Of a stretch of 64,000 bases of DNA, positions 462 through 15,387 are shown piece after piece. The stretch spans positions 128,001 through 192,000 of the forward strand of contig CAWAGQ010000005.1 in assembly GCA_963781585.1 (NCBI GenBank). Direction: 5' to 3'. Within the stretch, counting starts at the first letter, position 1; each line of letters starts with the position of its first letter. Below the pieces are notes generated by a model, which did no database searches, was not told the DNA's origin, and was given only the letters and a program-made list of their open reading frames with translations. The stretch comes from an uncultured Gemmatimonadaceae bacterium (GTDB lineage: Bacteria > Gemmatimonadota > Gemmatimonadetes > Gemmatimonadales > Gemmatimonadaceae). The translations under genes and the position numbers were made by a program.

Positions 462-2849
462 GTGTCAGATCTCGTCACCGCCTTGCGAGATGCCCTCGCC
501 GGCCGATATACCATCGACCGCGAGATCGGCCATGGTGGCATGGCGAGCGTCCTCCTCGCGCATGACGTGCGGCACGACCGTCCCGTCGCGGTCAAGGTGC
601 TCCACCCCCAGATCGCCGCAGCGGTGGGATCCGAGCGCTTCCTTCGCGAGATCCAGGTAGCGGCTCGGCTGCGACACCCGCACATTCTGCCGCTCTTCGA
701 CTCCGGCGAGGCGGCGGGACTCCTGTTCTACGTGATGCCGTACGTGGCCGGGGAGTCCCTGCGCGAACGACTGCGGCGGGCGGGCGCCCTTCCGTTGGCG
801 GACGCGTTGCGCATCGCCCGCGAGGTGGCAGACGCGCTCGACTACGCGCATAAGCAGGGAGTGGTGCATCGCGATATCAAACCCGACAACATACTGATCG
901 ACGACCGGCACGCGCTGATCGCGGATTTCGGCATCGCGCGCGCCGTCGCGCTCGACGACACGAGCGAGATGCTCACGTCCACGGGTCTGCTCGTGGGCAC
1001 GCCGGCGTACATGAGCCCGGAGCAGGTGAGCGGCGACCGCCTGCTCGACGGCCGGAGCGACCTCTACGCGCTGGGGTGCGTGCTCCATGAAATGCTCACG
1101 GGCGAGCCGCCGTTTTCGGGTCCGACGGCGCAGGCCATCATGGCAAAGCGCTTCGCCGGCGCCGCGCCGGCCATACCGGCTGACATCCCGCCGCCGGTAA
1201 CGGCGATCGTCGCTACGGCAATGCAGGTGGTCCCCGACAAGCGCTATGGCTCCGGGCGGGAGATGGCCGACGCACTCGACGCCGCAGAGAGCGCGAGCCG
1301 GGGTGTCGTGCCGACACCCGCGACGATGGCGACCAGGCCACCATTGCTGCGCCGTCCCGCCGTCGTGCTGGGCACGGCCGGCGCCCTCGTCGCGGTGATC
1401 GTGGCCGCCGTGCTGCTGAGGCAGCACGAACCAGCCGGAGCGGCACCCCCGGTGCAGGCCGCGTCGATCATGCCCTCGGTTGGCGTGCTGCCATTCGCCA
1501 ACCGGAGCGACAGCCGGGAGATGGAGTACTTCAGTGACGGCGTCACCGACGAGCTCATCACCGCGCTTTCGCGGGTGACCGGGATTCAGGTGGCCGGTCG
1601 TACCTCATCATTCTCGCTGAAGGGCAAGGGGCTCACGGCGCAGCAATCGGCCGACACGCTGCACGTGAAACTGCTGATCGACGGCAGCGTGCGGAGCAGC
1701 GGCCCGAGCGTCCGGGTGACGTGGGGTCTGATCGACGGCGCGAGCGGGCGGAGTCTCAACACCGGCGACTTCGACGGTGAGATGCGCAACGTCATCGCCC
1801 TGCAGGATTCGCTCGCCCGCACCATCGTGGCGCAGCTGCAGCCGGCGTTAGGCATCACGGTCACAGCCTCCACGCCCCGCCATACCACCGCGAACTTCGA
1901 GGCGTACAATCTGTATCTGCAGGGGCACTACTACTGGAACCAGCGGACGCCCGCGAGCATGCGGCGCGGCATCGCGTACTTCCGGGACGCCATCGCGCGG
2001 GATTCCGGCTACGCGCTGGCGTGGGCGGAACTGTCGAGCGCCTACACCCTGGAGGCGGGATTCGGCGACATGCGCCCCGGTGAGGTGCGGGACCTCGCGC
2101 GCGCGGCCGCCGAGCGGGCGGTGCGTCTCGACTCCACCCTGTCGGAGGGGTATACGGCGTTAGGCATCTGGCATTCGCTCGCAAACCAGGACTGGGCGAC
2201 GGCGCTGCCATATCTGGATCGGGCGGTGGCACTCGACTCGGCCAACTCGTTTCCGCACCTCTTTCGTACCTGGCCGCTGCTGGCGCTCGGACGCGGAGAG
2301 GAAGCCCTGGCTGAGGTCCGGAAGGCCGTGGCGCTCGATCCGCTGGCACCCACGCAGAATGCGCGGCTGGGCACCGTCCTCACCTGCCTGCGCCGCTACG
2401 ACGAGGCAATCGCCGGATTGCGCCGGGCCATCGAGCTCGATCCGTCAAACGTGCAGGCACGATTCGAGCTGGGGCACGCGTACGCGATGAAGGGTCGATT
2501 CGACGAGGCGTTCAAGGCGTTTCCCGACGCCATCGAATCGCAGGCCGGGTTCTCCACCGGATGGCTGGCCGCTTCCCTTGGCCGGGCCGGGCGGCCGGCG
2601 CAGGCGCGCGCGCTCTACGACCGGTTGCTGGCGCTGTCGAGGCAACGGCACGTCACGCAGGAGGCGCTGGCCCTCGCCGCGCTCGGCGCCGGTGACAAGT
2701 CACTCGCGCTGGACTGGCTGGAACGCGGGGTGCGCGAGCATTCGTTCTATCTCGTCTTTCTGAATGACGATCCGCTGTTCGACCCGCTGCGGAACGAGCC
2801 GCGGTTCCAGGCGATGCTGCGGCAGCTCCGGTTTCCCGGCGTGGGGTAG
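462..2849 (+). CDS. Hanks-type Ser/Thr protein kinase with TM segment, TolB-N-like domain and TPR repeats
   Basis: IGHGGMASV, VAVK, HRDIKPDN, DFG and GTPAYMSPEQ motifs; hydrophobic segment near aa 300-320; SVGVLPFAN..YFSDGVTDELI domain; TPR-like helices. Confidence 0.95.
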   Translation: MSDLVTALRDALAGRYTIDREIGHGGMASVLLAHDVRHDRPVAVKVLHPQIAAAVGSERFLREIQVAARLRHPHILPLFDSGEAAGLLFYVMPYVAGESLRERLRRAGALPLADALRIAREVADALDYAHKQGVVHRDIKPDNILIDDRHALIADFGIARAVALDDTSEMLTSTGLLVGTPAYMSPEQVSGDRLLDGRSDLYALGCVLHEMLTGEPPFSGPTAQAIMAKRFAGAAPAIPADIPPPVTAIVATAMQVVPDKRYGSGREMADALDAAESASRGVVPTPATMATRPPLLRRPAVVLGTAGALVAVIVAAVLLRQHEPAGAAPPVQAASIMPSVGVLPFANRSDSREMEYFSDGVTDELITALSRVTGIQVAGRTSSFSLKGKGLTAQQSADTLHVKLLIDGSVRSSGPSVRVTWGLIDGASGRSLNTGDFDGEMRNVIALQDSLARTIVAQLQPALGITVTASTPRHTTANFEAYNLYLQGHYYWNQRTPASMRRGIAYFRDAIARDSGYALAWAELSSAYTLEAGFGDMRPGEVRDLARAAAERAVRLDSTLSEGYTALGIWHSLANQDWATALPYLDRAVALDSANSFPHLFRTWPLLALGRGEEALAEVRKAVALDPLAPTQNARLGTVLTCLRRYDEAIAGLRRAIELDPSNVQARFELGHAYAMKGRFDEAFKAFPDAIESQAGFSTGWLAASLGRAGRPAQARALYDRLLALSRQRHVTQEALALAALGAGDKSLALDWLERGVREHSFYLVFLNDDPLFDPLRNEPRFQAMLRQLRFPGVG

Positions 2850-3057
2850 TCCATTCCTCTCCTCTCTGCGGCTTCTGCGGTTCACGGACCACCGGAGGCG
2901 CGAAGGACACAGAGCATCCGCTTCATCCGCCAAATCCGTTGCCGTTTCAGCTCCTGGGCATGGGCAGGGCGTGCGAGTCCGACCGGGCCGCAACACCCTC
3001 CCCTCTCCGGCACCAGCATTCAGACTCCCACAAAGGCCGACACAGGACGTCCGCAAC

Positions 3058-4711
3058 ATGACCGTCACGAGATCATCTGTACGCTCACCGCGCCGAAGTA
3101 GTCGGTTTTTCCGGGTCGCGATGCGCGGCGCCGCGATAACACTCGCCAGCGCTGCCGGGTTCGCCCAAGCATCCGCTCAAACGACCGGCGGTGCAGAGGC
3201 CCGCGCCGCGGCCCGGGAGTATCGCGAGGCGAACGAAGCGAAGCTGGTCCGCGACTTCGCGACCCTGCTCGCCATGCCTAACGTGGCGTCGAACCTGGCC
3301 AACGTACGGCGGAACGCGGACTACCTGTCGGTCGCTGCTGCGCGAGCGCGGCATCACGCCTCAGCTGTTGGAGGTGCCGAACGCGCCCCCCGCGGTGTAC
3401 GGCGAGCTCACGACCCCGGGCGCCACGCGCACCGTCGTGCTCTACGCACACTACGACGGCCAGCCGGTGGATCCGACGCAGTGGGCCGGGGCGCCGTGGA
3501 CCCCGGTGCTCCGCGACAAGCCGCTCACCCAGGGCGGTCATGACGTCCCCTTCCCCGCCCCCGGCCAGGCGGTGAACGGCGAGTGGCGCATCTACGCCCG
3601 CTCGGCCGGCGACGACAAGGCGTCGATCATGGCGATGCTCACCGCGCTCGACGCCATGCGCGCGGCGAAGCTCGCCCCGACGGTCAACGTCAAGTTCTTC
3701 TTCGAGGGCGAGGAGGAGGCGGGTTCGGGCCACCTCGAGGCGATCCTGCGCAAGTACAAGGACCTGCTCCGTGCCGACGCCTGGCTCTTCTGCGACGGCC
3801 CCGAGCACCAGACCGGGCGCCAGCAGGTGCTGTTCGGGCAGCGGGGCGTGGTGGATCTCGAACTCACCGTCTACGGGCCCACTCGGCCGCTGCACAGCGG
3901 CCACTACGGCAACTGGGCGCCGAATCCGGCTGCGCTGCTGGCCAACCTGATTGCGTCGATGCGCGACGACGACGGGCATATCCGGATCGCCGGCTACTAC
4001 GACGACGTGCGTCCGATCAGTGCCGCCGAGCGACAGGCGCTGGCCGCGCTGCCGGCGATCGACCCCACACTGCGCGCCTCGTTAGGCCTGGCACGCACCG
4101 AGGCCGGCGACGCACCGCTGGTGGAGCGGATCATGATGCCCGCGCTCAACGTGCGCGGACTGCGGGCGGGCGGGGTGGAGGAGACCTCGGCCAACGTGAT
4201 CTCCACCGAGGCGCTGGCGTCGTTCGATTTCCGGCTGGTGCCCGATCAGACGCCCGAACACGTGAAGCAGCTCGTCGAACGGCACCTCGCGGCGCAGGGA
4301 TACCACATCGTTCGCGACGTGCCCGACTCAGCCACCCGGGTGACGTATCCGAAGATCGCGCGGCTGCGGTGGGGGAGCGGGTATCCGGCGCAGCGAGCGT
4401 CGCTGGACGACCCGTTCGGGCGGGCGCTCATCGCCGCGCTGTCCGACGGCGCGCCGCAGCCGCCGCTCGTGCTGCCCACGTCGGGCGGGAGCGGGCCGAG
4501 CTATCTATTCACCGAGATCCTGGGTGCGCCGGTGGTGGGGCTCCCGATCGCCAACTACGACGACAACCAGCACGTCGCGAACGAGAATCTGCGGCTGCAG
4601 AATCTGTGGGATGGGGTCGAGTTGTACGCGGGGTTGCTGGTGCGGCTGGGACCGGCGTGGAGGAGCGCCGGGGTGACGCCAGACAGCTTCTCGCGGCTTC
4701 GCACTCCTTAG
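3058..4711 (+). CDS. M20/M25/M40 family metallopeptidase with signal peptide; one frameshift near 3330
   Basis: YAHYDGQP, ARSAGDDK, EGEEEAGS, LHSGHYGN and NQHVANEN motifs; the N-terminus (..MPNVASNLANVRRNADYL) is in another frame. Confidence 0.9.
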
Positions 4712-4735
4712 CGTACGGTGAGGCGGATGCGTTTC

Positions 4736-5918
4736 TCACCCACGGTGTAGCCTGTAGAGAGTTACGTGCGGTTCGCCGACGCGATCCTCATACGTACCGA
4801 GAATGTAGTCGTCGGCAATGTCGAATACTGTGAGGCCGGTCGGTATCCGGACGTCACCCACCAAACGACCGTCGTCCGCCAGCGCCAACAGCCGTGTCTC
4901 GACGTCTCCCGGCAAGTAGAGTGACACCCATAGTGTACCGGCCCGATCAGTGAATAGCGCCGTGTACGGGGGCACAGTGGCTGGCATCGGCCCTTCCAAC
5001 TCCAGGTCCTTCATTAGCTGCCGAGTCCGTGCATCCTGCCCGTACATGGCGAGAGCGTCTGCGGATGCTTCGTACTGCGCTCTCGATGGTCTCCGCGGTT
5101 CTACCGGCACGCGGATGGACGCGCGTCGCTGGCCATCCAAGGCGAACACTTCGATCACGGCCGAATCGGCGGGGCCGACGTAGAGACGATCGTCGGATAT
5201 CGCTATCACCGGTGCACGACCCAAGGGTCGTGGGACCGCCGCGCCGATGTGCGTGATGCTGTATTCCGGTCCCGGTACCATTCCAATCACCGCCAAGGTA
5301 CTGTCAGCGCCATTCACGACTCGCAGTTTCGCCCGTTCACGCGCCGACACAACGCCTGGTTTCGGAGGTTGAGAAAAGTTCGGTCGATCGTGCAGCGCGA
5401 ATTGGCCTTTGCGATTGCAGCGGATCAGATAGGGCGCGGGATCGAGCCTTCCGGCCGACGGGATGATGAAGCTGACGTCCCATGCGCCCACTCTTGTCAA
5501 GCGCTGTCAGCCGCTGATGGAAGAAGTCCCAGACGAAGAGACTGTCCGCAGCGCACTGGCCGAGCCAGGAGATGAGGCGGAATTCTCCAGGTCCATCACC
5601 CGAACGCCCAACAGTCCGCAGCAGGTGCCCTCTGGCGTCAAAGAAGCTGATTCTGTCGCCTCGTCCGTCGGCGATCACAATGGTGCCGTCTTGCTGTCGA
5701 ACGCCTGCTACCGGTAGCTCGAGCAACGCGGCCCCGGTCGGAGACAGGCCGTGAATATCGACGCTCGGAACAGAGTCGACGGACCAATGCGTTTGTGCGA
5801 GTGCGCAAGATGCCGTAGCAGCGTGCAGTAGTGCACAGATCACCAGTAGTGATGTTAGGGACGAAGAGCAAGGCGATGACTCGCCCGTGATGGACGAAAA
5901 CTTCGAATACCATCGCAT
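4736..5918 (-). CDS. Exported 6-bladed beta-propeller protein; frameshift near 5473
   Basis: GGAG RBS before ATG 5918; hydrophobic leader ending ALA-Q; VGRSGDGPGEFRLI..DSLFVWD and LFTDRAGTLWV propeller signatures split over ORFs 5337..6734 and 4736..5500. Confidence 0.75.
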
Positions 5919-6059
5919 AGCTGGTGCTCCGTGAAAGCCCCGCTTGAGGCGCGAATCGGCCTGACGCGTCAAGACCAGTGACCCAGCCAGAAATGCTCGG
6001 AATGGCCGTGCTGCACTGCGAGCCACGGTCCCCGGGGAACTGTTTCCGCCAGCCGGAAG

Positions 6060-6731
6060 AGACTCTACCTGATTCCTACGCTGCTTAGTGCCGCGCAGGG
6101 CAACTTCGACCGATCGCCGTAGCTCCGGGGTCAGCCCCGCAAACAACGCTGAATCGACCAGGACCGTAGGCGTAACGAATATTCCCAGGCTGCGGCCTGC
6201 CGCAATATCACGTTCGACCACGCGCATGACCGCCGAATCGCCGATGCAGCTACTGAACCTCATCGTGTCACGAATGCCGGCGCGGACCGCGAGAGAGACC
6301 CATTCCTGTCGAATCAGCGCCGCTGGATTCTCAAAAAGCATATCGTTATAGCGGTCGAACGAGCCAAGCTTGGCAGCACACACAGCGCTGCGGGCTGCGG
6401 GCAGCGCGACCGGGTGTGCTCGAAGGGGGTAATGACGCCAGACCACTTCCAGCTGGTTCTGATGCGTGGGCCGGATCTTTGCGAGATAGTGGTGGAGCGA
6501 TCGGCACCCGGGGCACTCATAGTCCGAGAAGACGGTGACGACAACAGACGGTTGCGACGCACCAAGCTTCTCTCCAGCCGCGGCGATGGAGCGCCATTCC
6601 GGGATGATTAGCGGTGCCACGGCGGCTCGTATTGGTAGCCGCCGCACTTGCCACACGTTGCGTATGGTCAGCGCGCTGGCCAGCCCCACGAGCGCAATTG
6701 CCGCGACGCGCGTGAGCCTCTGCACGGGCAT
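6060..6731 (-). CDS. DsbA-family (Thioredoxin_4/BdbD-like) disulfide oxidoreductase no. 1; 3' end uncertain because the frame stays open into the propeller gene
   Basis: N-terminal TM anchor, FSDYECPGC active site, RHYP, cis-Pro loop VTPT, second Cys pair (AVCAA..FSSCI). Confidence 0.88.
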
Positions 6732-6832
6732 CAATCAGGATCAGGCATCGAAGCTGTGGCCATCCGCGGCACGAGGACGGGGACAGACATCACTTGGTCA
6801 GACTCGTTGCCAGCGCGCGCGTAGCCTGACCC

Positions 6833-7042
6833 TCATTGCTCCTCCATGTTGTAGCACTCCGGCCCTGGGAACGGATAGGGGAAGCAGTAGTTGCAGGTGA
6901 CGGAGAGGTTATCGCAGTCGGCATGCACCTTGCATCGGTAGTCGCTGCAGGTCGTGAAGGTTGTACGGTGTTGACTCGCGTACGCGAGATTTGCAGCCGA
7001 GACGAGGAGACCCGCTGCGGCTAGCAGAATGTTCTTCTTCAT
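6833..7042 (-). CDS. Small secreted cysteine-rich peptide no. 1 (69 aa, 6 Cys)
   Basis: GGAGG RBS; MKKNILLAAAGLLVSAANLAYA signal peptide; mature part C-X4-C-X5-C-X6-C-X2-C-X9-C. Confidence 0.8.
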   Translation of the reverse strand: MKKNILLAAAGLLVSAANLAYASQHRTTFTTCSDYRCKVHADCDNLSVTCNYCFPYPFPGPECYNMEEQ

Positions 7043-7270
7043 CTGACATGCCTCCACATGAGCTGTTCAGCTGAGCGTGAGCGGCGTGGTGATGGATCAC
7101 CCAGCACGAGGACATTTGGTGCCGCGGCAACAGAACGGCTTGGACTTACGTTCAATGACGAAGCGATCGTCTTCTCGCGTGCGGACGCGACCAATCTCTC
7201 TGCTTGGCCCAGGAAGGATCAGTGCCCCCGCACGATGGCCCATGCTACGCTTGGACGTGGGCGTCCCACA

Positions 7271-7287
7271 ATAGATCGGTGATCTAT
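7271..7287. promoter_or_regulatory. Perfect 7-3-7 inverted repeat ATAGATC-GGT-GATCTAT upstream of peptide 1 (candidate operator)
   Basis: Palindrome read directly; near-identical element upstream of peptide 2. Confidence 0.4.
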
Positions 7288-7436
7288 GAAGTGAAGGCCG
7301 TCGCAAGAACAAGACGGCGAGATTCGAAGCAACCAGTAACCACGAGACCGTTGCTGCACACAATTCGAACTGCAGAGCGCGAAGAGCATGTCTCTGCGGT
7401 GATCACGCGAGCCACGGGTCGCGGCCGCAGCACTGC

Positions 7437-8120
7437 TCAAGCCTTCTCCTCGAAGTCTTCCAGCCGCAACATCCACGAGCCGGAGATACCCAGTTTTCCA
7501 TAAATCGCGTGCAGATGGTTGCGCACGGTCCGTTCGCTGATCCCGAGCCTCGCCGCTATTTCCCTGGCCGTACGTCCCGACGCCCTGAGTCCGGCCACGT
7601 CGCGCTGGCGCACCGTCAAGCGCTGTCGCGCTCGGGGCCGCCGATACCGGCCCGCTTCCGCTGCCCGCTGCAGCAGGTCCGACACCAGCTTGGGCCACGG
7701 GGACTGCCCTCGTACCGCCGCCTTCACAACAGCTTGAAGCTGCTGGGCGGTCGGATCACCGAGCACGAATCCACACGCTCCGAGCCGGACGAACTCGAGT
7801 ATCTCCCGCTCATCCTCCTCGTCCACACCGTAGACTACCACGTGAACGCCGGCAGGAATGCGTGGCCCGATCGAGGCGAACGCGCGCGCAGAAATCGACC
7901 CCCCGTCCAGCAGGAGCAACACCGATCCTGCTTCATCCGCCTCGACCGGCGTTGCCGATCGCCGCGAGGCGGGACTCACCGGAACCTGAACGACTGGCGC
8001 GATGACCCGCGCTATGGCCTCTGCATCGAGCAACAGCCCACTCAATACCACCACGCGACTGGCGCGAAATGGCGGAGCCCGGCCGGCGGGTTGCGACGGA
8101 CCGTCCTGGGACGTGACCAT
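7437..8120 (-). CDS. LuxR/NarL-type regulator with degenerate receiver domain
   Basis: C-terminal LTVRQRDV..GRTAREIAARLGISERTVRNHLHAIYGKLG HTH; REC-like GACGFVL; start chosen by analogy with the AAGGAGG-preceded ATG of the copy at 13378. Confidence 0.88.
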   Translation of the reverse strand: MVTSQDGPSQPAGRAPPFRASRVVVLSGLLLDAEAIARVIAPVVQVPVSPASRRSATPVEADEAGSVLLLLDGGSISARAFASIGPRIPAGVHVVVYGVDEEDEREILEFVRLGACGFVLGDPTAQQLQAVVKAAVRGQSPWPKLVSDLLQRAAEAGRYRRPRARQRLTVRQRDVAGLRASGRTAREIAARLGISERTVRNHLHAIYGKLGISGSWMLRLEDFEEKA

Positions 8121-8490
8121 AGGCATCCTTCGGGAGCTCGCCGAAACCCAGACCCATCGCCTTCTGTGGCGTGTCCCCGCGGATCGCAAGGCTCGCTCGA
8201 TCCGTCGGGTACGTCTCTCCCGTACAGCCAAGTTGGGGTGTCTAGGCCGCGCGCACCGACACGCTATGTGCAGTTGCAATACACCATGTTACGTCGGGCC
8301 AGATATCCGGGGCGAGGCGACGCGATCGCGGACGTAGCCGGGCGAGCAGCAGCGAGATTCCGCTCCTCAGCAGGTGGCGATGCTCGCGGCGCTTGTGGAT
8401 CTCGATCGAGCTCACCGTCTCCGCGCCGACGCGTCCACTCCACCGCGGGCATTACGGAACTGGGCGCGTAGTCCGACTACCCTCGCTCAG
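7884..8490. repeat. ~600 bp dispersed direct repeat, copy 1 (5' half of luxR, its leader, M20 remnant)
   Basis: Aligns by eye along its length with 13138-13748. Confidence 0.92.
8345..8475 (+). pseudogene. Decayed fragment of the M20 peptidase gene (copy 1)
   Basis: Translates ..IELTVSAPTRPLHRGHYG.. versus DLELTVYGPTRPLHSGHYGNWAP at 3851-3928. Confidence 0.75.
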
Positions 8491-8778
8491 TGGAGACCGC
8501 TTCGCCAACCCGACTGCATTCCTGCACCCGAGGTGCCAGGATCGCGGGATCTTCGTGGCGCAGCATGGCCGTCTTGTATCCCACCACTTCCATCCCTAGC
8601 GCGCAGGCCTTGGTGAAGTTCGAGCGCGATCACGGGCAGGATGCCGTCGACTGACACAGCGATGGTCGACCGCGGGACATCCTGACCGTACGAACGCGGG
8701 CGTGCTTCCGGCAAGTCGAGCCGCGGTTCTAGCGACTTCCGGCCTTCAAACTCATTGCCCTGACACGGTAGCAAGGGA

Positions 8779-11235
8779 TCAGGGCGCCCGAGTCCACAAT
8801 ACAATCGTCCCGCACGCCGCCCCGGTCCCTCCAAACTGGATGGGCGTATTCGCCGGTCCCGGGTAGATTTCCATCGCCTCGACGCCATTCGGTGCAAAGT
8901 CGTCGATGTTGGGCGGCTTCACCAGCCCGCCCGGTTGAAAAATCACCGCTCCGTCGAGGTAGATCTGGAAATAGCACCGGTTAACGCCATAGGAGCCGTC
9001 CGGAAGCGCCTCTGTTGACAGTCGATCGAGAGTCGACGCGAAAGCTGAGCGGGTGCTCTCGAGAAAGACCGTATTATCAGGCCGGCGCACGAGCCTTACC
9101 CCGGGCACCGAGCGCAGGATGTCGCTCAGGCGCGAGTGCTCGCGTGCGGCGAGTTGCGCCCGGGTGATGAAGTGTCCCCCGGCATTCATCGCGCGCCGCT
9201 CCTCGAACCCCCGCATCTTCGCCGCCACGGCTGTTCCCGTCACCACCACACCGGGCAGTTCCGTCACGTTCGGCGTCAGCACGAACTCGCGCACCGCGTC
9301 CGCCGGCTGCGGCAGCGTCACCCGCGCGAGCACCGGCCGATAACCCACCGCGCGCACCACCACCGTGTATGTCCCCCAGGGCAGCATCGCGAAGGCGAAC
9401 GCGCCGTCGGCCGCCGTCCGCGCCGCACGGGACACGCCGGGCAGCAGCACCTCCGCAGCCACGGCCGGCCGCATGGTAGAGTCGTGCCTCACGACTACCC
9501 GCCCTCGCAGCGTCGTCGCCTTCGCCGCCGTCGCGCTCAACGCCAGCGTCACCTCGACCGCGCTCGCGGTGTCGGCCGCGGCCACGGTGCGGTCCCCGAT
9601 TGCCCCGCCCAGTTCCGCGTGCAGCCGCACGAGGTCCACCCGCGGTGGCCGGCAGAAGGTCACGATCCCGGCCTCGTCGGACTCGGTCTCGATGGTCGAG
9701 TCGCCCACTGACGCACTCACCAGCTCCGTTGCCGCCTGGACGGCGAGCCGCCGCCACGACAGCAACGTTCGCGCCCCGGGGACCGGAGCGTGCGTGAGTG
9801 AGTCGACGACGTACCCGATAATGAGCTGCGGCCGCTCGCCGCGACCGGTCTCGGCACCGCAATAGCGTGCACGTAGCGTCGCCGCACTCGACACCGTCCA
9901 GTTGGCGACCGACTCGCTCCCCCGGGAGAGCACGACCTCCTGCTGCGCTCCGTGCGTACCAAAGCGCACGAGTCGCGGGTCGTCGGTGGCCAGGATGTAG
10001 CGCCCCGCCAGAACACTCCGGAGCCGGTACCGGCCCGCGCTATCGGTCACCGCCTCGGCCACTCCGCCTGCCAGGCTGAGGTGCGCGCTCGACATGGGGA
10101 CCCCGCGCACACTGTCGAACGCCACCCCGGTCAGCGCCGGCAGGTCGGCCGGCGCCTCCCGGCCAGCGGCGAGCGCGGCCCACCCGCCCTCCTCACGGTA
10201 GCCGAGCAGACTGTCGCGGGCAGGCACGGTGAGCGCGCCGACGCGCACCGCGCCCACGCGGCCCAGCCGCGGGAGCCGGATGTACCACTGGCCCACAATC
10301 CACTGGCCGTTAGGCAGGGCTACGAACTCCAGCCGCCCGCCGGCGCGCCCCGCCTCGTTGCGCATGGGCAGGTGCGTGTACGTGTAGTCCAGCCACCGCA
10401 GTTCCGCGCTCGGCTGCTCGACCCAGAGCACCCCGCTCACGTCGCTCACCGTGCGCCCGGGAGCCGGCTCGAAAGCAAGTCCGATCAGCGCGTCGGTCCC
10501 GGCGAGCTCCTTCACGGCGAAGCAGTGGTCCTGCGTGAAGCGGTCCGACAGGAGGAGCCCCGCGTCGGGGGCGAAGAAGGTGAGCGTACCGTCCACGTCG
10601 TGGGCAAAGCCCAGGCGCGAGAGCTCCTCCGGCGGGGCAGTCGCGAACGGCATCCCTCCCGGAATTCCGTGCGAGGAGGTGGTCTCGGCGACCACGCGCA
10701 GCGCCTGGTCGAGGGTGCGCGTGTAGCGCAAGACCTGGATGGGGAGCCCCTGCGGCGCCGAGAGGACCGTGGCGTCGAGCGCCTTGCGCACTTCTGCCCA
10801 CAGCCGGGCCGCCGCCGTGCCCGTCGCCGGATCAAGCCGGCAAGAGCGGCGTGCACGGACGTCAACCTTCTCGAGCGTGAGGGGGCGCGCAACGAGGGCG
10901 AGGCGCACCGCCAGCGGATCGGCCTCCACCACCAGGAGCCCGGAGCTGTCGGCCGCGTAGCCGATGCGCTCGGCGCGGACCCGGACGCGCGCGCCTAACG
11001 TGGCATGCAGCGTGGCGCGTCCCTGTTCGTCGGTGAGCGCGGCGGTGGGCCGCGAGCCGTCGGCGAGCACCAGCGAGGCGATCGCGCCCACGAGTGGCGT
11101 GTCAGACGCCCGGTCCACCACCAGCACGCGAACGCTCTGCGCAAACAGGCCACAGCCCGGTAACCCAACCGTGAGGATGGAGGCGATGAGCCCACATACC
11201 GCGCGGCGCACTAGTCTGACTCGCTGCCGGCGCAT
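8779..11235 (-). CDS. Exported protein with carboxypeptidase-regulatory-like domains and a C-terminal TonB-plug-like domain (no beta-barrel)
   Basis: Signal peptide; TDEQGRA..RIGY, TDSAGRY and ADGAFAF..RAVGY repeats; HFITRAQL..SDILRSVPGV..IYLDG..VEAMEIYPG..CGTIVLWTR end. Confidence 0.82.
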   Translation of the reverse strand: MRRQRVRLVRRAVCGLIASILTVGLPGCGLFAQSVRVLVVDRASDTPLVGAIASLVLADGSRPTAALTDEQGRATLHATLGARVRVRAERIGYAADSSGLLVVEADPLAVRLALVARPLTLEKVDVRARRSCRLDPATGTAAARLWAEVRKALDATVLSAPQGLPIQVLRYTRTLDQALRVVAETTSSHGIPGGMPFATAPPEELSRLGFAHDVDGTLTFFAPDAGLLLSDRFTQDHCFAVKELAGTDALIGLAFEPAPGRTVSDVSGVLWVEQPSAELRWLDYTYTHLPMRNEAGRAGGRLEFVALPNGQWIVGQWYIRLPRLGRVGAVRVGALTVPARDSLLGYREEGGWAALAAGREAPADLPALTGVAFDSVRGVPMSSAHLSLAGGVAEAVTDSAGRYRLRSVLAGRYILATDDPRLVRFGTHGAQQEVVLSRGSESVANWTVSSAATLRARYCGAETGRGERPQLIIGYVVDSLTHAPVPGARTLLSWRRLAVQAATELVSASVGDSTIETESDEAGIVTFCRPPRVDLVRLHAELGGAIGDRTVAAADTASAVEVTLALSATAAKATTLRGRVVVRHDSTMRPAVAAEVLLPGVSRAARTAADGAFAFAMLPWGTYTVVVRAVGYRPVLARVTLPQPADAVREFVLTPNVTELPGVVVTGTAVAAKMRGFEERRAMNAGGHFITRAQLAAREHSRLSDILRSVPGVRLVRRPDNTVFLESTRSAFASTLDRLSTEALPDGSYGVNRCYFQIYLDGAVIFQPGGLVKPPNIDDFAPNGVEAMEIYPGPANTPIQFGGTGAACGTIVLWTRAP

Positions 11236-11323
11236 GGTGAATAGCCCCTCCGTTCGACCGCCTGGCTGTCCCTCATCAGGGCGCGCTGCTTGCTGATGTG
11301 TGCTTCTGACCCCGGCCACCGGC

Positions 11324-12037
11324 TTATGGCCATTCCTTGTGGCGCCGTGCTGGCTGGGTTCCGAACGGCGCCTTCCCCTCGAGGAACTCCGTAATCACAT
11401 GCTCGAGCTCGGTCGAATCCGGAATGGACCAGTAGCGCCAGCCATTCAGCACGATAGTCGGCGTTCCGCGAACGCCGACCTTCTTTCCAAGAGCCAGCCC
11501 TGCAGCGATCCTTGGGACCGCAGCAGTGTCCGCGGCACAGCGTGCAAATTGCACGGTATCCTTAACGCCAGCGGCCGCAGCAAATGATGCCCAGGACTTG
11601 AGTCCGAGAGAATCTTGCTTCTCGTACAGAAGATCATGAAGTGCGCCAAACCTGCCAAACCTCTCAGCACACTCAGCGGCGCGGGCCGCGGGTTTCGCGA
11701 AGCGATGCTGCGGAAGTGGGAAATGTACCAGATAGACTCCGAAGTCTGCACCGAACCGTCGCCGCAAGCCCTTGGTTTGCTGGTAAAACAGCCTGCAGGC
11801 CGGACACTCCAAATCGGCAAACTCAACCAACTTAACCTTGGCACCAGGGCTGTAAACGGGAACCGCAACTCGCAGCATTTCGTCCCACTCTTTCACATAC
11901 TCAGGCGGGCGCTCCGAGTCCTGTAGTGGGTTCCTCGGAGCGCTCCCTCCAAACTCTCTGTGGAGAAGCGCAACCGCTACTGCGACCGCGGCAACGACCA
12001 GTGCGCCTGTCGCGAACGAGTCAAACGCCGATGCCAT
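11324..12037 (-). CDS. DsbA-family disulfide oxidoreductase no. 2
   Basis: TM anchor, FADLECPAC, VHFP, GVRGTPT, second Cys pair (AECAE..FARCA). Confidence 0.92.
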   Translation of the reverse strand: MASAFDSFATGALVVAAVAVAVALLHREFGGSAPRNPLQDSERPPEYVKEWDEMLRVAVPVYSPGAKVKLVEFADLECPACRLFYQQTKGLRRRFGADFGVYLVHFPLPQHRFAKPAARAAECAERFGRFGALHDLLYEKQDSLGLKSWASFAAAAGVKDTVQFARCAADTAAVPRIAAGLALGKKVGVRGTPTIVLNGWRYWSIPDSTELEHVITEFLEGKAPFGTQPARRHKEWP

Positions 12038-12106
12038 GGGACACGATCAGCACTGCATGAGTCTCATTGAATGGTCGCCGAGCGCGCGAATAGCTGATTC
12101 GGCCAG

Positions 12107-12358
12107 TCACGGATATTGACACGAAATGGTCGGACCAGGCGACGAGCACTGGGCGTCGAACGCGCAGCCATCCATCCCGGGACTTCCCAGACACACTTGC
12201 TGGCAGTATGCATCACCCTCCGCCTGCTCAGGGCACATGATCAGGGGCCAGCACCCGAAACAGTTCGAAAATGCCACCGCTGGCTTGGGCGTCAAGAGCC
12301 CGACGGCGCCAACCGCGATGACGGTCGTCGCAATCATCCGAAATGTACGGTGGACCAT
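12107..12358 (-). CDS. Small secreted cysteine-rich peptide no. 2 (83 aa, 8 Cys)
   Basis: AAGGAGGT RBS; signal peptide ending PAVA; mature part C-X2-C-X5-C-X9-C-X3-C-X8-C-X5-C-X8-C. Confidence 0.82.
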   Translation of the reverse strand: MVHRTFRMIATTVIAVGAVGLLTPKPAVAFSNCFGCWPLIMCPEQAEGDAYCQQVCLGSPGMDGCAFDAQCSSPGPTISCQYP

Positions 12359-12761: not shown

Positions 12762-13140
12762 CTACTCATCCACCACCGTCTGCCCCTGCCTGCCGAACAC
12801 GAGCATCCCGCCCTGGAACGATGATCATCGCGCCTAACGCTGTGAGGGCCGTGAAGCGCTCGCCGAACAGCAGCACCGCCCAGGCCACCGCGAACACGAT
12901 CTGCAGAATCCCCGCCGTGGTCGCCCGCGCGGTGCGCTCGATCTGCAGTCCGCGCGTCATGTACATCTGCGCCAGCTGAGTCGCGCACCCCGCCCCGATC
13001 AGCAGCGTCCACTCCACCATGCCGGGCATCCGCCAGTGCAGCGCCACAAACGGCAGCGCCATCGGGATCTGCACCAGCGGCAGGTAGAAGACCACCACCA
13101 TGGGGTGCTCGACCTCGAGCCGGCGGATGGTGGCATACGC
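12762..13140 (-). pseudogene. Duplicated 3' portion of the DMT/EamA transporter gene
   Basis: YATIRRLEVEHPMVVVFYLPLVQIPMALPF..; close DNA match to 14476-14857; no 5' half; frameshift near the end. Confidence 0.92.
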
Positions 13141-13378
13141 GCGCAGAAATCGACGCCCCGTCCAGCAGGAGCAACACCGATCCTGCTTCATCCGGCTCGA
13201 CCGGCGTTGCCGATCTGCGCGAGGCGGGACTCACCGGAACCTGAACGACTGGCGCGATGACCCGGGCTATGGCCTCTGCATCGAGCAACAGCCCACTCAG
13301 TACCACCACGCGACTGGCGCGAAATGGCGGAGCCCGGCTGGCGGCTTGCGACGGACCGTCCTGGCCCCTGAGCACCAT
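13138..13378 (-). pseudogene. Truncated 5' part of the luxR-type regulator, fused to the DMT fragment
   Basis: RAPPFRASRVVVLSGLLLDAEAIARVIAP.. is identical to the 7437 gene, then switches to DMT sequence at cgcgcg. Confidence 0.9.
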
Positions 13379-13599
13379 AGGCCTCCTTCGGGAGCTCGCC
13401 GAAACCCAGACCCATGGCGTGCCGCGGCGTGTCCCCGGATCGCAACCCTCGCTCGATCCTTCGGCTACATCTCTCCCGTGCAGCCAAGTTGGGGTGTCCT
13501 GCCCGCACGCACCGACACGCTATGTGCAGTTGCGATACGCCATGTTACATCGAGCCGGATATCCAGGGGCGAGGCGACACGATCGGCCACGCAGCCGAG

Positions 13600-13732
13600 C
13601 GAGCAGCAGCGCGATTCCGCTGCTCAGCTGGTGGCGATGCTCACGGCGCTCGTGGATCTCGATCGGGCTCACCGTCTACGGGCCGACGCCTCCACTGCAC
13701 AGCGGGCAATACACAACTGGGCGCGTAGTCCG
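13600..13732 (+). pseudogene. Decayed fragment of the M20 peptidase gene (copy 2)
   Basis: ggcgatgctcacggcgctcg matches 3631-3650 with one mismatch; LTVYGPTPPLHSGQY..NWA matches 3851-3928. Confidence 0.78.
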
Positions 13733-13733
13733 A

Positions 13734-14174
13734 CTACCCCCCGCTCAGCGGATTGACCACCCGAAGAAACGGGAATTGATGGAAGTCGGTGTCGGCGGTG
13801 CGTACTTCCGAAAGTCCGTGCTCGAGCATCAACGCCGCGGTGTGCAGATCGTGCACGGGATTCCCCGCGAGCCGCGGATGCCGCCCCGCAAGCTCGCGCA
13901 CGACCTCGGGATGACGTTCGGTTTCCGTGAGGATCCGGCAGCTGGGGCTCGCTCGCACGGCTGATACCCATAACCAGGCCTGCTCGAGGGAGAGCGGCCG
14001 GTCGAATACCGCGCGGTGCGTACTGACGCGGAGGAATTCGTAGATCACGCCCCAGGTGAGGAACCACAATACGTTGCCGCGTCGGTAACGCTCCACTTCG
14101 GCCAGCGCGACCTCGTGCTCGGGGGAGTCGGGGTTGATCGCGTAGAGGAGGATGTTCGTATCGACGAGGAACAC
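13734..14174 (-). CDS. vapC: PIN-domain VapC toxin
   Basis: VDTNILLYA, YEFLR, HDLHTAA and TADTDF acidic PIN motifs. Confidence 0.93.
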   Translation of the reverse strand: MFLVDTNILLYAINPDSPEHEVALAEVERYRRGNVLWFLTWGVIYEFLRVSTHRAVFDRPLSLEQAWLWVSAVRASPSCRILTETERHPEVVRELAGRHPRLAGNPVHDLHTAALMLEHGLSEVRTADTDFHQFPFLRVVNPLSGG

Positions 14175-14177
14175 CGG

Positions 14178-14408
14178 CTACCGGCCCTCCATCGCCCGGT
14201 ACAGCACATCCCGGTCGGCGAGGTCCACTCGGGGTGCGCCCATAGAGTAGACGGCGAGGGGCTCCTGCGCCGCTGGCGCCGCGTCTGTCCCGTCCAGTCC
14301 TCTGCGCAGCGTCTCGGCCACAACAGCGGAGAGCGTCTCCCGGCGGCGAGCGGCTCGGCGCTTCAGCTCGCGGAACAGCTGGTCAGGAATGATGAGAGTC
14401 GTCTTCAT
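14178..14408 (-). CDS. vapB: Ribbon-helix-helix antitoxin
   Basis: MKTTLIIPDQLFRELKRRAA..LSAVVAETLRRGL; 3 bp upstream of vapC. Confidence 0.88.
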   Translation of the reverse strand: MKTTLIIPDQLFRELKRRAARRRETLSAVVAETLRRGLDGTDAAPAAQEPLAVYSMGAPRVDLADRDVLYRAMEGR

Positions 14409-14475
14409 AGGAATAATCATACTGTCAGTAGGACTATACGGAAAGCGCCGCGCCTGGTGCGTCTGGGCTCTGTCG

Positions 14476-15387
14476 CTACTCCTCCATCGTCACCGCCTGC
14501 TGCCTGACGAGCACCAGCATGCTCGCGCCGGCCACGATCGTCACCGCGCCGGCCACCGTCCATAGCGTGAACCGCTCGCCGAAGAGCAGCACCGCCCACG
14601 CCGCCGCGAAGACGATCTGCAGATAGCCGGTCGTGGTGGCGCGCGCGGTGCGCTCGATCTGCAGCCCGCGCGTCATGTACATCTGCGCGAGCTGGGTCGC
14701 GCACCCCGGCGCCGATCAGGAGCGCCCACTCCACCAAGCCAGGCATGCGCCAGTGCAGCGCCACGAACGGCAGCGCCATCGGGATCTGCACCAGCGGCAG
14801 GTAGAAGACCACCACCATGGGGTGCTCGACCTCGAGCCGGCGGATGGTCGCGTACGCCGCGCCGCTGCACGCGGCCCCGCCGAGCGCAATGAGGGCCCAG
14901 ACCGGCGGAATGCCGCTCGACGCACCGCCGAACAGCAACGCCGGCCGGGTGACGAGCAGCACCCCGATCAGCGACGTCGCCAGCGCCAGCAACTCGCGCT
15001 TCCCGATGTGTTCGTGGTACCAGAGCGACGCCAGAATGATCGCGAATACCGGATTGGTGTACTGGATCAGCGTTGCCTCGCCTAACGGGAGATGGGTGAG
15101 CGAGAAGATGAAGCAGGCCAGGGCCAGCGACCCCAGATGCCCCGCAGGACGAGCAGCCGCCGCTGGACGCCGAAGATCGCCCGCCCCCGCACCGCCCGGC
15201 GCAGCAGCACCAGGTAACTCAGGCCCAGCGTCACCAGCCCGCGATACAGCACGATGTCCATGCTCGGCACGGTGCGCCCGGCGAGCTTCACCAGCACGCT
15301 CATCACGCTGAACCAGAACGCGCCGATCGCCATGTAGCGGATGCCCGACGGGACGTCGGCGACCGCGTGCGTGATGGTGCGGGTCAT
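14476..15387 (-). CDS. DMT/EamA family transporter; frameshifts near 15137 and 14710
   Basis: Multiple TM helices; LPLGEATLIQYTNPVF and LQIVFAAAWAVLLFGE motifs across three frames. Confidence 0.88.

Follow-up and report, generated by a model that had tools for sequence, protein, structure and literature searches.

Two gene cassettes in a 64,000-nt stretch of DNA from an uncultured Gemmatimonadaceae bacterium (GCA_963781585.1, contig CAWAGQ010000005.1, positions 128,001–192,000 of the forward strand; the whole stretch is called the window below) probably represent, on balance, two instances of an accessory module that occurs widely, though patchily, in Gemmatimonadota and serves the oxidative folding of hypervariable secreted mini-proteins. 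In each cassette, a small gene for an exported cysteine-rich peptide (pep1 or pep2) is followed by a gene for a membrane-anchored DsbA/BdbD-type protein (DsbA1 or DsbA2) and by one for a large exported protein: an NHL-type six-bladed propeller in cassette 1 and a protein with CarboxypepD_reg domains, here named carb, in cassette 2 (Table 1). The product proposed for the module is an acidic mini-protein of small size, held in shape by 3–5 disulfides. The window lies on contig C5 (C5:128001–192000) of a 5.7-Mb assembly (G000; estimated completeness 93.5%, contamination 7.19%), and coordinates are window positions unless a contig is named.

An initial annotation of the window had described two parallel minus-strand cassettes whose small genes each have a strong ribosome-binding site and encode a signal peptide together with 6 or 8 Cys, and this description is confirmed. 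The Shine–Dalgarno sites are strong at both genes (GGAGG 9 nt upstream of the ATG of pep1, AAGGAGG 6 nt upstream of that of pep2), both signal peptides end in an AXA-type site (NLAYA/S and PAVA/F, respectively), and the 6 Cys of pep1 all lie in its mature part. DsbA1 starts 98 bp past the pep1 stop codon and DsbA2 69 bp past that of pep2, in keeping with the roughly 100 bp first reported. Both carry an N-terminal hydrophobic anchor and the annotated active sites, CPGC and CPAC, and both match the Pfam families Thioredoxin_4 (54 bits for DsbA1 and 71.1 bits for DsbA2, cut-off 23.2) and DSBA (37.4 and 34.7 bits, cut-off 25.6). At 31% identity to each other, they are distant paralogues, as had been claimed. 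A PGP shared by the two peptides before the last Cys, to which the annotation had also pointed, proved trivial.

The pairing of peptide and DsbA genes goes beyond chance. First, it recurs within the assembly itself. A crude scan for open reading frames (ORFs) with a signal peptide and at least 6 Cys returned 64, mostly Arg/Ser-rich off-frame artefacts; 11 of these were flagged near a DsbA gene, one of them evidently spurious and inside carb. Stricter filters (signal peptide, even Cys count, small ORF) left 25 candidates. The 11 DsbA genes of a single clade have 8 of these at a distance of 600 bp or less, in a zone that makes up 0.34% of the genome; 11 of the 25 are near that clade or near a propeller. 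Counted from the DsbA side, 8 of 14 paralogues adjoin a signal-peptide ORF with at least 6 Cys, and a ninth, on contig C13, adjoins a broken copy. The peptide is upstream of the DsbA at most of these loci and downstream at two (C7 and C6:39058). Peptides also stand beside a propeller or carb paralogue with no DsbA, at C9 128378–128898, C9 138611, C9 149656 and C6 33666.

Second, the pairing extends to relatives and follows the phylogeny of the DsbA genes. Across 41 genomes searched, with E below 1e-25 defining a close homologue of DsbA2, a small Cys-rich ORF lies beside the DsbA in 11 of 15 close-homologue loci and in none of 19 distant ones, so that the linkage suggested in the initial annotation was borne out when this check was run. 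A related-locus search with DsbA2 alone gave mostly generic DsbA genes of other phyla, and only one locus from it (L010) was used. In a DsbA tree of 49 rows, one of which (L101, no peptide) comes from an unpublished genome, G008, 17 of the 19 peptide-linked rows fall in one half, DsbA2 among the peptide-linked clade, and the copy linked to VKOR falls in the other. The peptide label requires 7 changes on this tree, compared with a mean of 15.3 after shuffling, and none of 500 shuffles came as low. The CxxC motif is kept in 24 of 25 rows of the peptide-linked clade.

Third, the pairing is also recovered starting from the peptide. A profile built from nine pep2-like peptides alone and run on 301 Gemmatimonadota genomes matches 17 of them, including that of the window. 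Once this genome and the training set are excluded, 18 loci are left, and 13 of them hold a DsbA gene within 1.5 kb.

Finally, a second contig of the same assembly, C8, offers a natural comparison. Over 358 kb, C8 is syntenic with C5 at a nucleotide identity of about 88%; from this, together with the contamination estimate of 7.19%, we conclude that two related genomes are probably mixed in the assembly bin. On C8, the propeller comes straight after carb, and both peptide–DsbA pairs are missing. The segment 5899–8741, which holds repeat copy A, a LuxR-type regulator gene, pep1 and DsbA1, has no counterpart there. Also missing is 11427–12351, comprising pep2 and about 200 codons of DsbA2; what is left is some 100 nt at the 3′ end of DsbA2, along with the sequence upstream of pep2. 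Thus pep2 and most of DsbA2 were lost together in one deletion, while carb and the propeller stayed. This joint loss indicates that a peptide and its DsbA behave as a unit. Since carb and the propeller persist on C8 with neither peptide nor DsbA, it also indicates that the pair is not a strict requirement for the large partner. The overall interpretation given in the initial annotation is partly supported: it holds for the conserved architecture and for the DsbAs as separate paralogues, less so for the large partner. The G+C content at third codon positions (GC3) is 0.62–0.74 for the peptide, DsbA and propeller genes compared with 0.85–0.89 for the carb, M20 peptidase and kinase genes, and the lower values fit accessory DNA.

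The NHL propeller is the regular third gene of the module. In the genome of the window, a propeller lies within 500 bp of 8 of the 11 clade DsbAs (a zone of 2.4% of the genome) and of none of four other DsbAs; all 11 have either a propeller at this distance or a carb-like locus within 3 kb, and the four others have neither. The large exported third gene of the initial annotation is real in both cassettes, with propeller and carb as described, but the two are not equivalent, the propeller being regular and carb looser. In the window, the propeller is six-bladed as annotated, of the NHL type, but is split by a 1-nt frameshift: relative to an intact 444-aa copy on C8, to which its two parts are 89% and 93% identical, the frames 5337–5918 and 4736–5500 carry one extra base near 5476. 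DsbA1, in turn, has no stop codon and reads on into the propeller gene, with whose ATG at 5918 it is in frame. Pfam gives only weak NHL and DUF5128 matches across the propeller family. The window copy has weak DUF5128 matches there and a strong NHL match by profile, and several 400–450-aa genes that follow a DsbA are blank in Pfam yet belong to the same family as the weak DUF5128/NHL matches (hhalign probability 99.6%, E 7.8e-25). The family shares the motif GRxGxGPGEF, and its profile matches the NHL domain of Thin (6d69, E 2.2e-40) and those of TRIM2, TRIM3 and TRIM71 (E 2.5e-32 to 5.3e-30) in the PDB, in 3–4 stretches. A reading of the propeller as a PAL-like enzyme was rejected: PAL is touched only at E 4.3e-6, and a nine-row alignment holds no invariant His.

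The propeller paralogues are only 17–28% identical among themselves, and most have few Cys. One locus in a metagenome-assembled genome (MAG) of the Gemmatimonadales (L010, JBJHCE010000011.1) encodes, in order, a signal-peptide ORF of 93 aa that is rich in Cys, a free-standing propeller and a 602-aa fusion of a DsbA domain to a propeller-like C-terminal half (3905–5713, plus strand). The existence of this fusion supports the view that DsbA and propeller are physical partners. Complex prediction for the propeller of another locus, L119, with its cognate pep2-family peptide gave scores of 0.07 and 0.10, which are under the mark and neutral either way.

Carb-type proteins are frequent but looser neighbours than the propeller and are not core parts of the module: a carb-like locus lies within 3 kb of 6 of the 11 clade DsbAs, in a zone of 4.4% of the genome. 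The N-terminal 470 residues of carb, which contains 8 Cys, belong to large Gemmatimonadota-specific CarboxypepD_reg families (Atlas), and its C8 copy begins MRRQRV. Its Plug match covers residues 718–825 of 846 at 22.8 bits, below the cut-off of 23.9, with the protein ending 21 residues later; a match to the TonB-linked receptor 9gbc in the PDB (E 1.4e-6) covers residues 605–744 only. We rejected carb as a TonB-dependent receptor on the grounds that the Plug-like match is sub-threshold and C-terminal and that there is no barrel, whereas in such receptors a 22-strand barrel follows the Plug domain. Both large families form very large paralogous expansions in this genome, with 62 NHL-propeller ORFs and 34 loci of CarboxypepD_reg type.

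The peptides themselves are conserved in architecture rather than in sequence, as had been proposed: several unrelated Cys frameworks adjoin the same DsbA clade. None of 21 peptides matches a Pfam or NCBIfam family, in line with the candidate undescribed peptide system of the initial annotation. The Cys count is even in 37 of 38 peptides, the sole exception being an artefact of a crude cut. Likewise, 37 of 38 are net acidic (median charge −5), which argues against classical cationic antimicrobials. A reading of the peptides as spurious ORFs was rejected on the conserved Cys columns and the homologues. As further unrelated frameworks in modules of this kind, tandem paralogous CC-rich peptides with 8 Cys follow the propeller at C9 128378–128898, and three 10-Cys paralogues (CSQHCDP...CC...CC...QCC) flank one DsbA at C10 276779–278438. 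At L112 (G002:C104), the place of a small peptide after a clade DsbA is taken by a protein of 716 aa (2754–4904, minus strand) that has 30 Cys and matches nothing in Pfam.

By sequence, pep1 is a real but rare gene, a near-orphan. Its single homologue in a set of 5.8 billion proteins, P0002 (65 aa, E 2e-11), keeps all 6 Cys and CNYCFPYPFPGP; no match was found among 300 other Gemmatimonadota genomes, and metagenome scans for the contig of P0002 gave no locus. The AlphaFold2 (AF2) model of pep1 is unusable, with a predicted local distance difference test (pLDDT) score of 57. Knottins, or inhibitor cystine knots, pair their cysteines I–IV, II–V and III–VI in a knot; pep1 has six conserved Cys, whose pairing is unreadable from a model at this score. 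Relatives of pep2, by contrast with those of pep1, form an 8-Cys family present across Gemmatimonadota at 18–39% identity, in which five Cys columns of a 19-sequence alignment are invariant and one nearly so. Beyond the phylum, a word search of the 5.8-billion protein set gave no candidate for pep2, and an Atlas search gave a best score of 0.82 to Acidobacteriota clusters, a lead only.

For the pep2 family, the knottin- or defensin-like character claimed in the initial annotation holds in part, in that its fold is predicted to be defensin-like; the match is weak, the canonical CXC is absent, and the pep1 model has no bearing. The best AF2 model of mature pep2 reaches a pLDDT of 86.8 and a predicted template modelling (pTM) score of 0.65, with five models spanning pLDDT 54–86.8, and has a strand, a helix (residues 16–26) and two further strands in beta-alpha-beta-beta order. 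Foldseek returned nothing significant for this model, its top rows being the plant defensin AtD90 and brazzein at E 3.6–3.9. The VIA search, which is independent of Foldseek, placed AtD90 first (Z 4.5, root-mean-square deviation 2.4 over 46 residues) with several other plant defensins among its top 25, at Z scores so low that they can reflect a common arrangement; 5gyy_H, a small chain of a 'plant receptor complex', is a further neighbour (Z 4.0). A CXXXC is present in or at the end of the pep2 helix (C23-QQV-C27), although the C27 column is not conserved in the family, and the 19-row alignment has a single invariant Cys in the last strand, with no CXC there.

The redox setting is consistent with DsbAs set aside for these peptides. 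About 15 DsbA paralogues were found in the genome by tblastn. Its one VKOR gene (C14:104601–105693) directly follows a DsbA paralogue of the other clade, and the two are likely to be the housekeeping pair; DsbB was not found in this genome, which is 93.5% complete. The peptide-linked DsbAs, as placed by the tree, are extra paralogues apart from the VKOR-linked housekeeping DsbA. Among solved structures, DsbA2 matches 4pwp, a chain named DsbA (E 3.4e-11), BdbD, and the chains 6nen (E 4.1e-6) and 6mhh (E 6.4e-6), named 'copper resistance protein' and 'metal resistance protein', which we take to be ScsC-type proteins.

Taken together, these features suggest the following course. The precursor would be exported by Sec and its signal peptide cut at the AXA site, as read from the sequence. 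The adjoining anchored DsbA/BdbD-type paralogue would then form the disulfides, a step suggested by the conserved linkage and by intact CPxC and cis-Pro motifs, and would presumably be re-oxidised by the single VKOR of the genome. The exported propeller may work with the DsbA as a substrate-binding platform, or may be a partner of the folded peptide; adjacency, the natural fusion and the analogy to NHLRC2 point this way. Once folded, the mini-protein most likely serves outside the cytoplasm as a binding ligand or an inhibitor, rather than acting on membranes as a cationic peptide would. A part in conflict or recognition is suggested by its hypervariable sequence, by its many copies per genome and by its presence in some genomes but not in others close to them.

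Several observations weigh against the module as we read it. Four of the 15 close-homologue loci (L112, L115, L116 and the broken L117) have no small Cys-rich neighbour, and the five of the 18 reverse-test loci with no DsbA in their 1.5-kb flanks are the four weakest matches (E >1e-4) and one at a contig start. Support for the deep split of the DsbA tree is weak (80/75), and related genomes do not count as independent samples. Most of the 62 propeller-family ORFs of the genome have no DsbA or peptide nearby, so the role of this family must be wider than the module. In a diderm cell, a Sec signal alone delivers a peptide to the periplasm only. Cassette 1, finally, looks damaged, given the DsbA1 frame that lacks a stop codon and the frameshift in the propeller. 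Because other genes are also affected (EamA and a 681-aa transporter, like the propeller, are broken on C5 but whole on C8), assembly indels are as likely a cause of these defects as real decay.

Of the possible end functions, we favour a binding ligand or inhibitor, followed by a toxin and then by a recognition pair. As toxins, the peptides would be bacteriocin-type weapons, secreted antibacterial or antifungal molecules of defensin-like form, with the DsbA as maturation enzyme and the propeller or carb as immunity factor or decoy receptor; we regard this as unlikely, if the strongest of the alternatives. Sublancin 168, for which dedicated thiol-disulfide oxidoreductases are reportedly required, is a precedent, and the peptides are hypervariable, multi-copy and polymorphic by indel, with GC3 below that of flanking genes. 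The predicted fold has plant defensins as its top structural neighbours, and bacterial cis-defensins with signal peptides are described in PMC11561630, but the structural matches are too low to exclude a common arrangement and the canonical CXXXC...CXC motif is incomplete. The acidity of the peptides speaks against classical cationic bacteriocins, as does the lack of exporters (ABC or other), C39 peptidases and small membrane immunity genes among the ORFs between 3 and 15 kb of the window.

A recognition pair, in which the hypervariable peptide is the ligand of a co-encoded and equally divergent NHL propeller in cell–cell or self/non-self recognition or signalling and the DsbA only makes the ligand, strikes us as rather improbable. 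Some peptides do adjoin propellers with no DsbA between them (C9 128378–128898 and C9 138611), and the divergence of the propeller paralogues, the 'plant receptor complex' neighbour of the pep2 model and the LuxR regulator in cassette 1 are in keeping with it. However, the propellers have no transmembrane or signalling output domain, their 62 ORFs far exceed the peptides, and LuxR is not found at the other modules of the genome. In its most elaborate form, this idea becomes a polymorphic extracytoplasmic recognition system of hypervariable, acidic defensin-fold ligands, equally divergent NHL-propeller receptors and a private anchored DsbA for each ligand, sometimes propeller-fused, which would discriminate kin or competitors or block incoming enzymes. 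We hold that to be a long shot; such a system would be a bacterial counterpart of eukaryotic pairs of Cys-rich ligand and propeller. Least probable is that the extra DsbAs serve their large exported neighbours (propellers, CarboxypepD_reg proteins and large Cys-rich proteins), with the small ORFs being either there by accident or peptides that buffer redox state or metals in the periplasm, in the style of Scs copper tolerance. The resemblance of DsbA2 to the 6nen and 6mhh chains, the 30-Cys protein that follows the L112 DsbA where no small peptide is present, and the 8 Cys of carb lean this way. Yet a search with the peptide alone recovers DsbA neighbours, pep2 and DsbA2 were lost jointly on C8 while carb and the propeller were kept, most propellers have few Cys, and even Cys counts with invariant columns are typical of structural disulfides.

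The region around the cassettes has been rearranged. In minus-strand order, from high to low coordinates, it holds a broken EamA gene, VapB/VapC, repeat copy B, an EamA fragment, pep2, DsbA2, carb, repeat copy A, LuxR, pep1, DsbA1 and the propeller. The repeat copies are 88–95% identical (repeat families D1, D2, D5, D6 and D7), and copy B is the mark of the rearranged region. Short fragments of the M20 peptidase and EamA genes are duplicated around the cassettes (3858–3907, 8406–8455 and 13663–13712; 12850–13140 and 14566–14857; families D3, D4 and D6) and look like scars of repeated recombination. The M20 peptidase gene itself lies on the plus strand, convergent with the minus-strand genes. 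Directly upstream of the rearranged segment is a pair of genes for VapB-like (80 aa) and PIN/VapC-like (146 aa) proteins (13734–14420, minus strand), named from their translations alone; VapC is kept only in part on C8. LuxR is absent beside the other modules of the genome. A promoter and terminator scan of the region was uninformative, with no sigma-70-like site and with terminator-like sites on the wrong strand.

Table 1. Features of the two cassettes and their surroundings, in window positions
Feature	Position	Strand	Description
propeller	4736..5918	-	Exported NHL-type six-bladed propeller; motif GRSGDGPGEF; split over two frames
DsbA1	6080..6734	-	Membrane-anchored DsbA/BdbD-type domain; CPGC; VTPT cis-Pro loop; ORF runs on to 5337
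pep1	6833..7042	-	69-aa precursor; Sec signal peptide; mature part ~47 aa; 6 Cys; net acidic
LuxR/GerE-type regulator	7437..8279	-	Upstream of pep1; Pfam GerE E 1e-11
repeat copy A	7883..8482		~600 bp; 5′ part of LuxR and fragment of M20 peptidase gene
carb	8779..11319	-	846 aa; exported; several CarboxypepD_reg domains; C-terminal Plug-like domain; probable start ATG 11235
DsbA2	11324..12037	-	Membrane-anchored DsbA/BdbD-type; CPAC; GTPT cis-Pro loop
pep2	12107..12358	-	83-aa precursor; mature part 54 aa; 8 Cys; net charge −5
repeat copy B	13138..13739		Upstream of cassette 2; N-terminal fragment of LuxR fused to EamA fragment

In the open-access literature we found no description of such a module, no paper combining Gemmatimonadetes, cysteine-rich and DsbA, and nothing for NVEALA or DUF5128. 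New in this analysis are the joint loss seen between C5 and C8, the reverse test from peptide to DsbA, the acidic charge pattern, the non-canonical defensin-like model and the looser linkage of carb compared with that of the propeller. In practical terms, a neighbouring marker gene can lead to many genuine small genes in genomes of high GC content. If the trio works together, it would amount to a large natural library in which every compact, disulfide-locked scaffold comes with a matching folding enzyme, and would extend defensin-like folds to acidic, non-canonical bacterial forms that motif surveys miss.

A few Gram-positive bacteriocin loci are known to have disulfide catalysts dedicated to a single secreted peptide, and the same logic seems to operate here in a diderm phylum, in multiple copies, with a swappable peptide and an NHL propeller. 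The closest of these precedents is sublancin 168 of Bacillus subtilis SPbeta, which has a double-glycine leader, an ABC exporter, a glycosyltransferase and a dependence on the DsbB-type BdbB; Dorenbos is said to have found in 2002 that thiol-disulfide oxidoreductases are required for its production. The likeness is a disulfide-containing secreted peptide encoded beside its own thiol-disulfide oxidoreductases (BdbA/BdbB). The cassettes differ in their Sec signal, in an anchored DsbA-type enzyme as the only catalyst, in the NHL propeller, in the diderm host and in many hypervariable copies per genome. A check for a sublancin-type locus found no double-glycine leader, and no ABC transporter among the ORFs read or scanned between 3 and 15 kb of the window.

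BdbD and the DsbAs of 4pwp/4pwo are general housekeeping oxidases. BdbD (3eu3) and the 4pwp/4pwo chains are the best solved-structure matches to DsbA2 (E 3.4e-11 to 5e-5) and share the CPxC motif and the cis-Pro loop, but one genome here holds 11 additional DsbA paralogues, distinct from the copy linked to VKOR and tied to specific small ORFs. A link of redox genes to bacteroidetocins was dropped; the text of PMC8546649 contains none of the words disulfide, thioredoxin or oxidoreductase.

Bacterial cis-defensins and actifensins are likewise small, Cys-rich peptides with a signal peptide and a CXXXC helix packed on a beta-sheet, to which the beta-alpha-beta-beta topology predicted for pep2 may be compared. 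The cis-defensin survey (PMC11561630) lists five classes; Gemmatimonadota is not among the three phyla that it reports, and the word DsbA does not occur in it. The pep2 family fails the pattern given there, CX(2,18)CX(3)CX(2,12)CX(4,17)CXC, with no CXC at its last invariant Cys, and the module peptides are acidic, not cationic.

Finally, the NHL propeller links the module to the unexplained thioredoxin–NHL pairing of NHLRC2-type proteins. According to PMC6107167, NHLRC2 joins a thioredoxin-like domain (CCINC) to a six-bladed NHL propeller, with the cleft between them as the proposed binding site. The same two elements, a thioredoxin fold and an NHL propeller, are neighbours in the module and are fused in one Gemmatimonadales MAG. 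The module differs in that its enzyme is of DsbA type (CPxC, Thioredoxin_4), extracytoplasmic and anchored, in that the two parts are mostly separate genes, and in the linked gene for a Cys-rich peptide. Should the trio work together, it would be a tractable bacterial model for the role of a thioredoxin fold paired with an NHL propeller.

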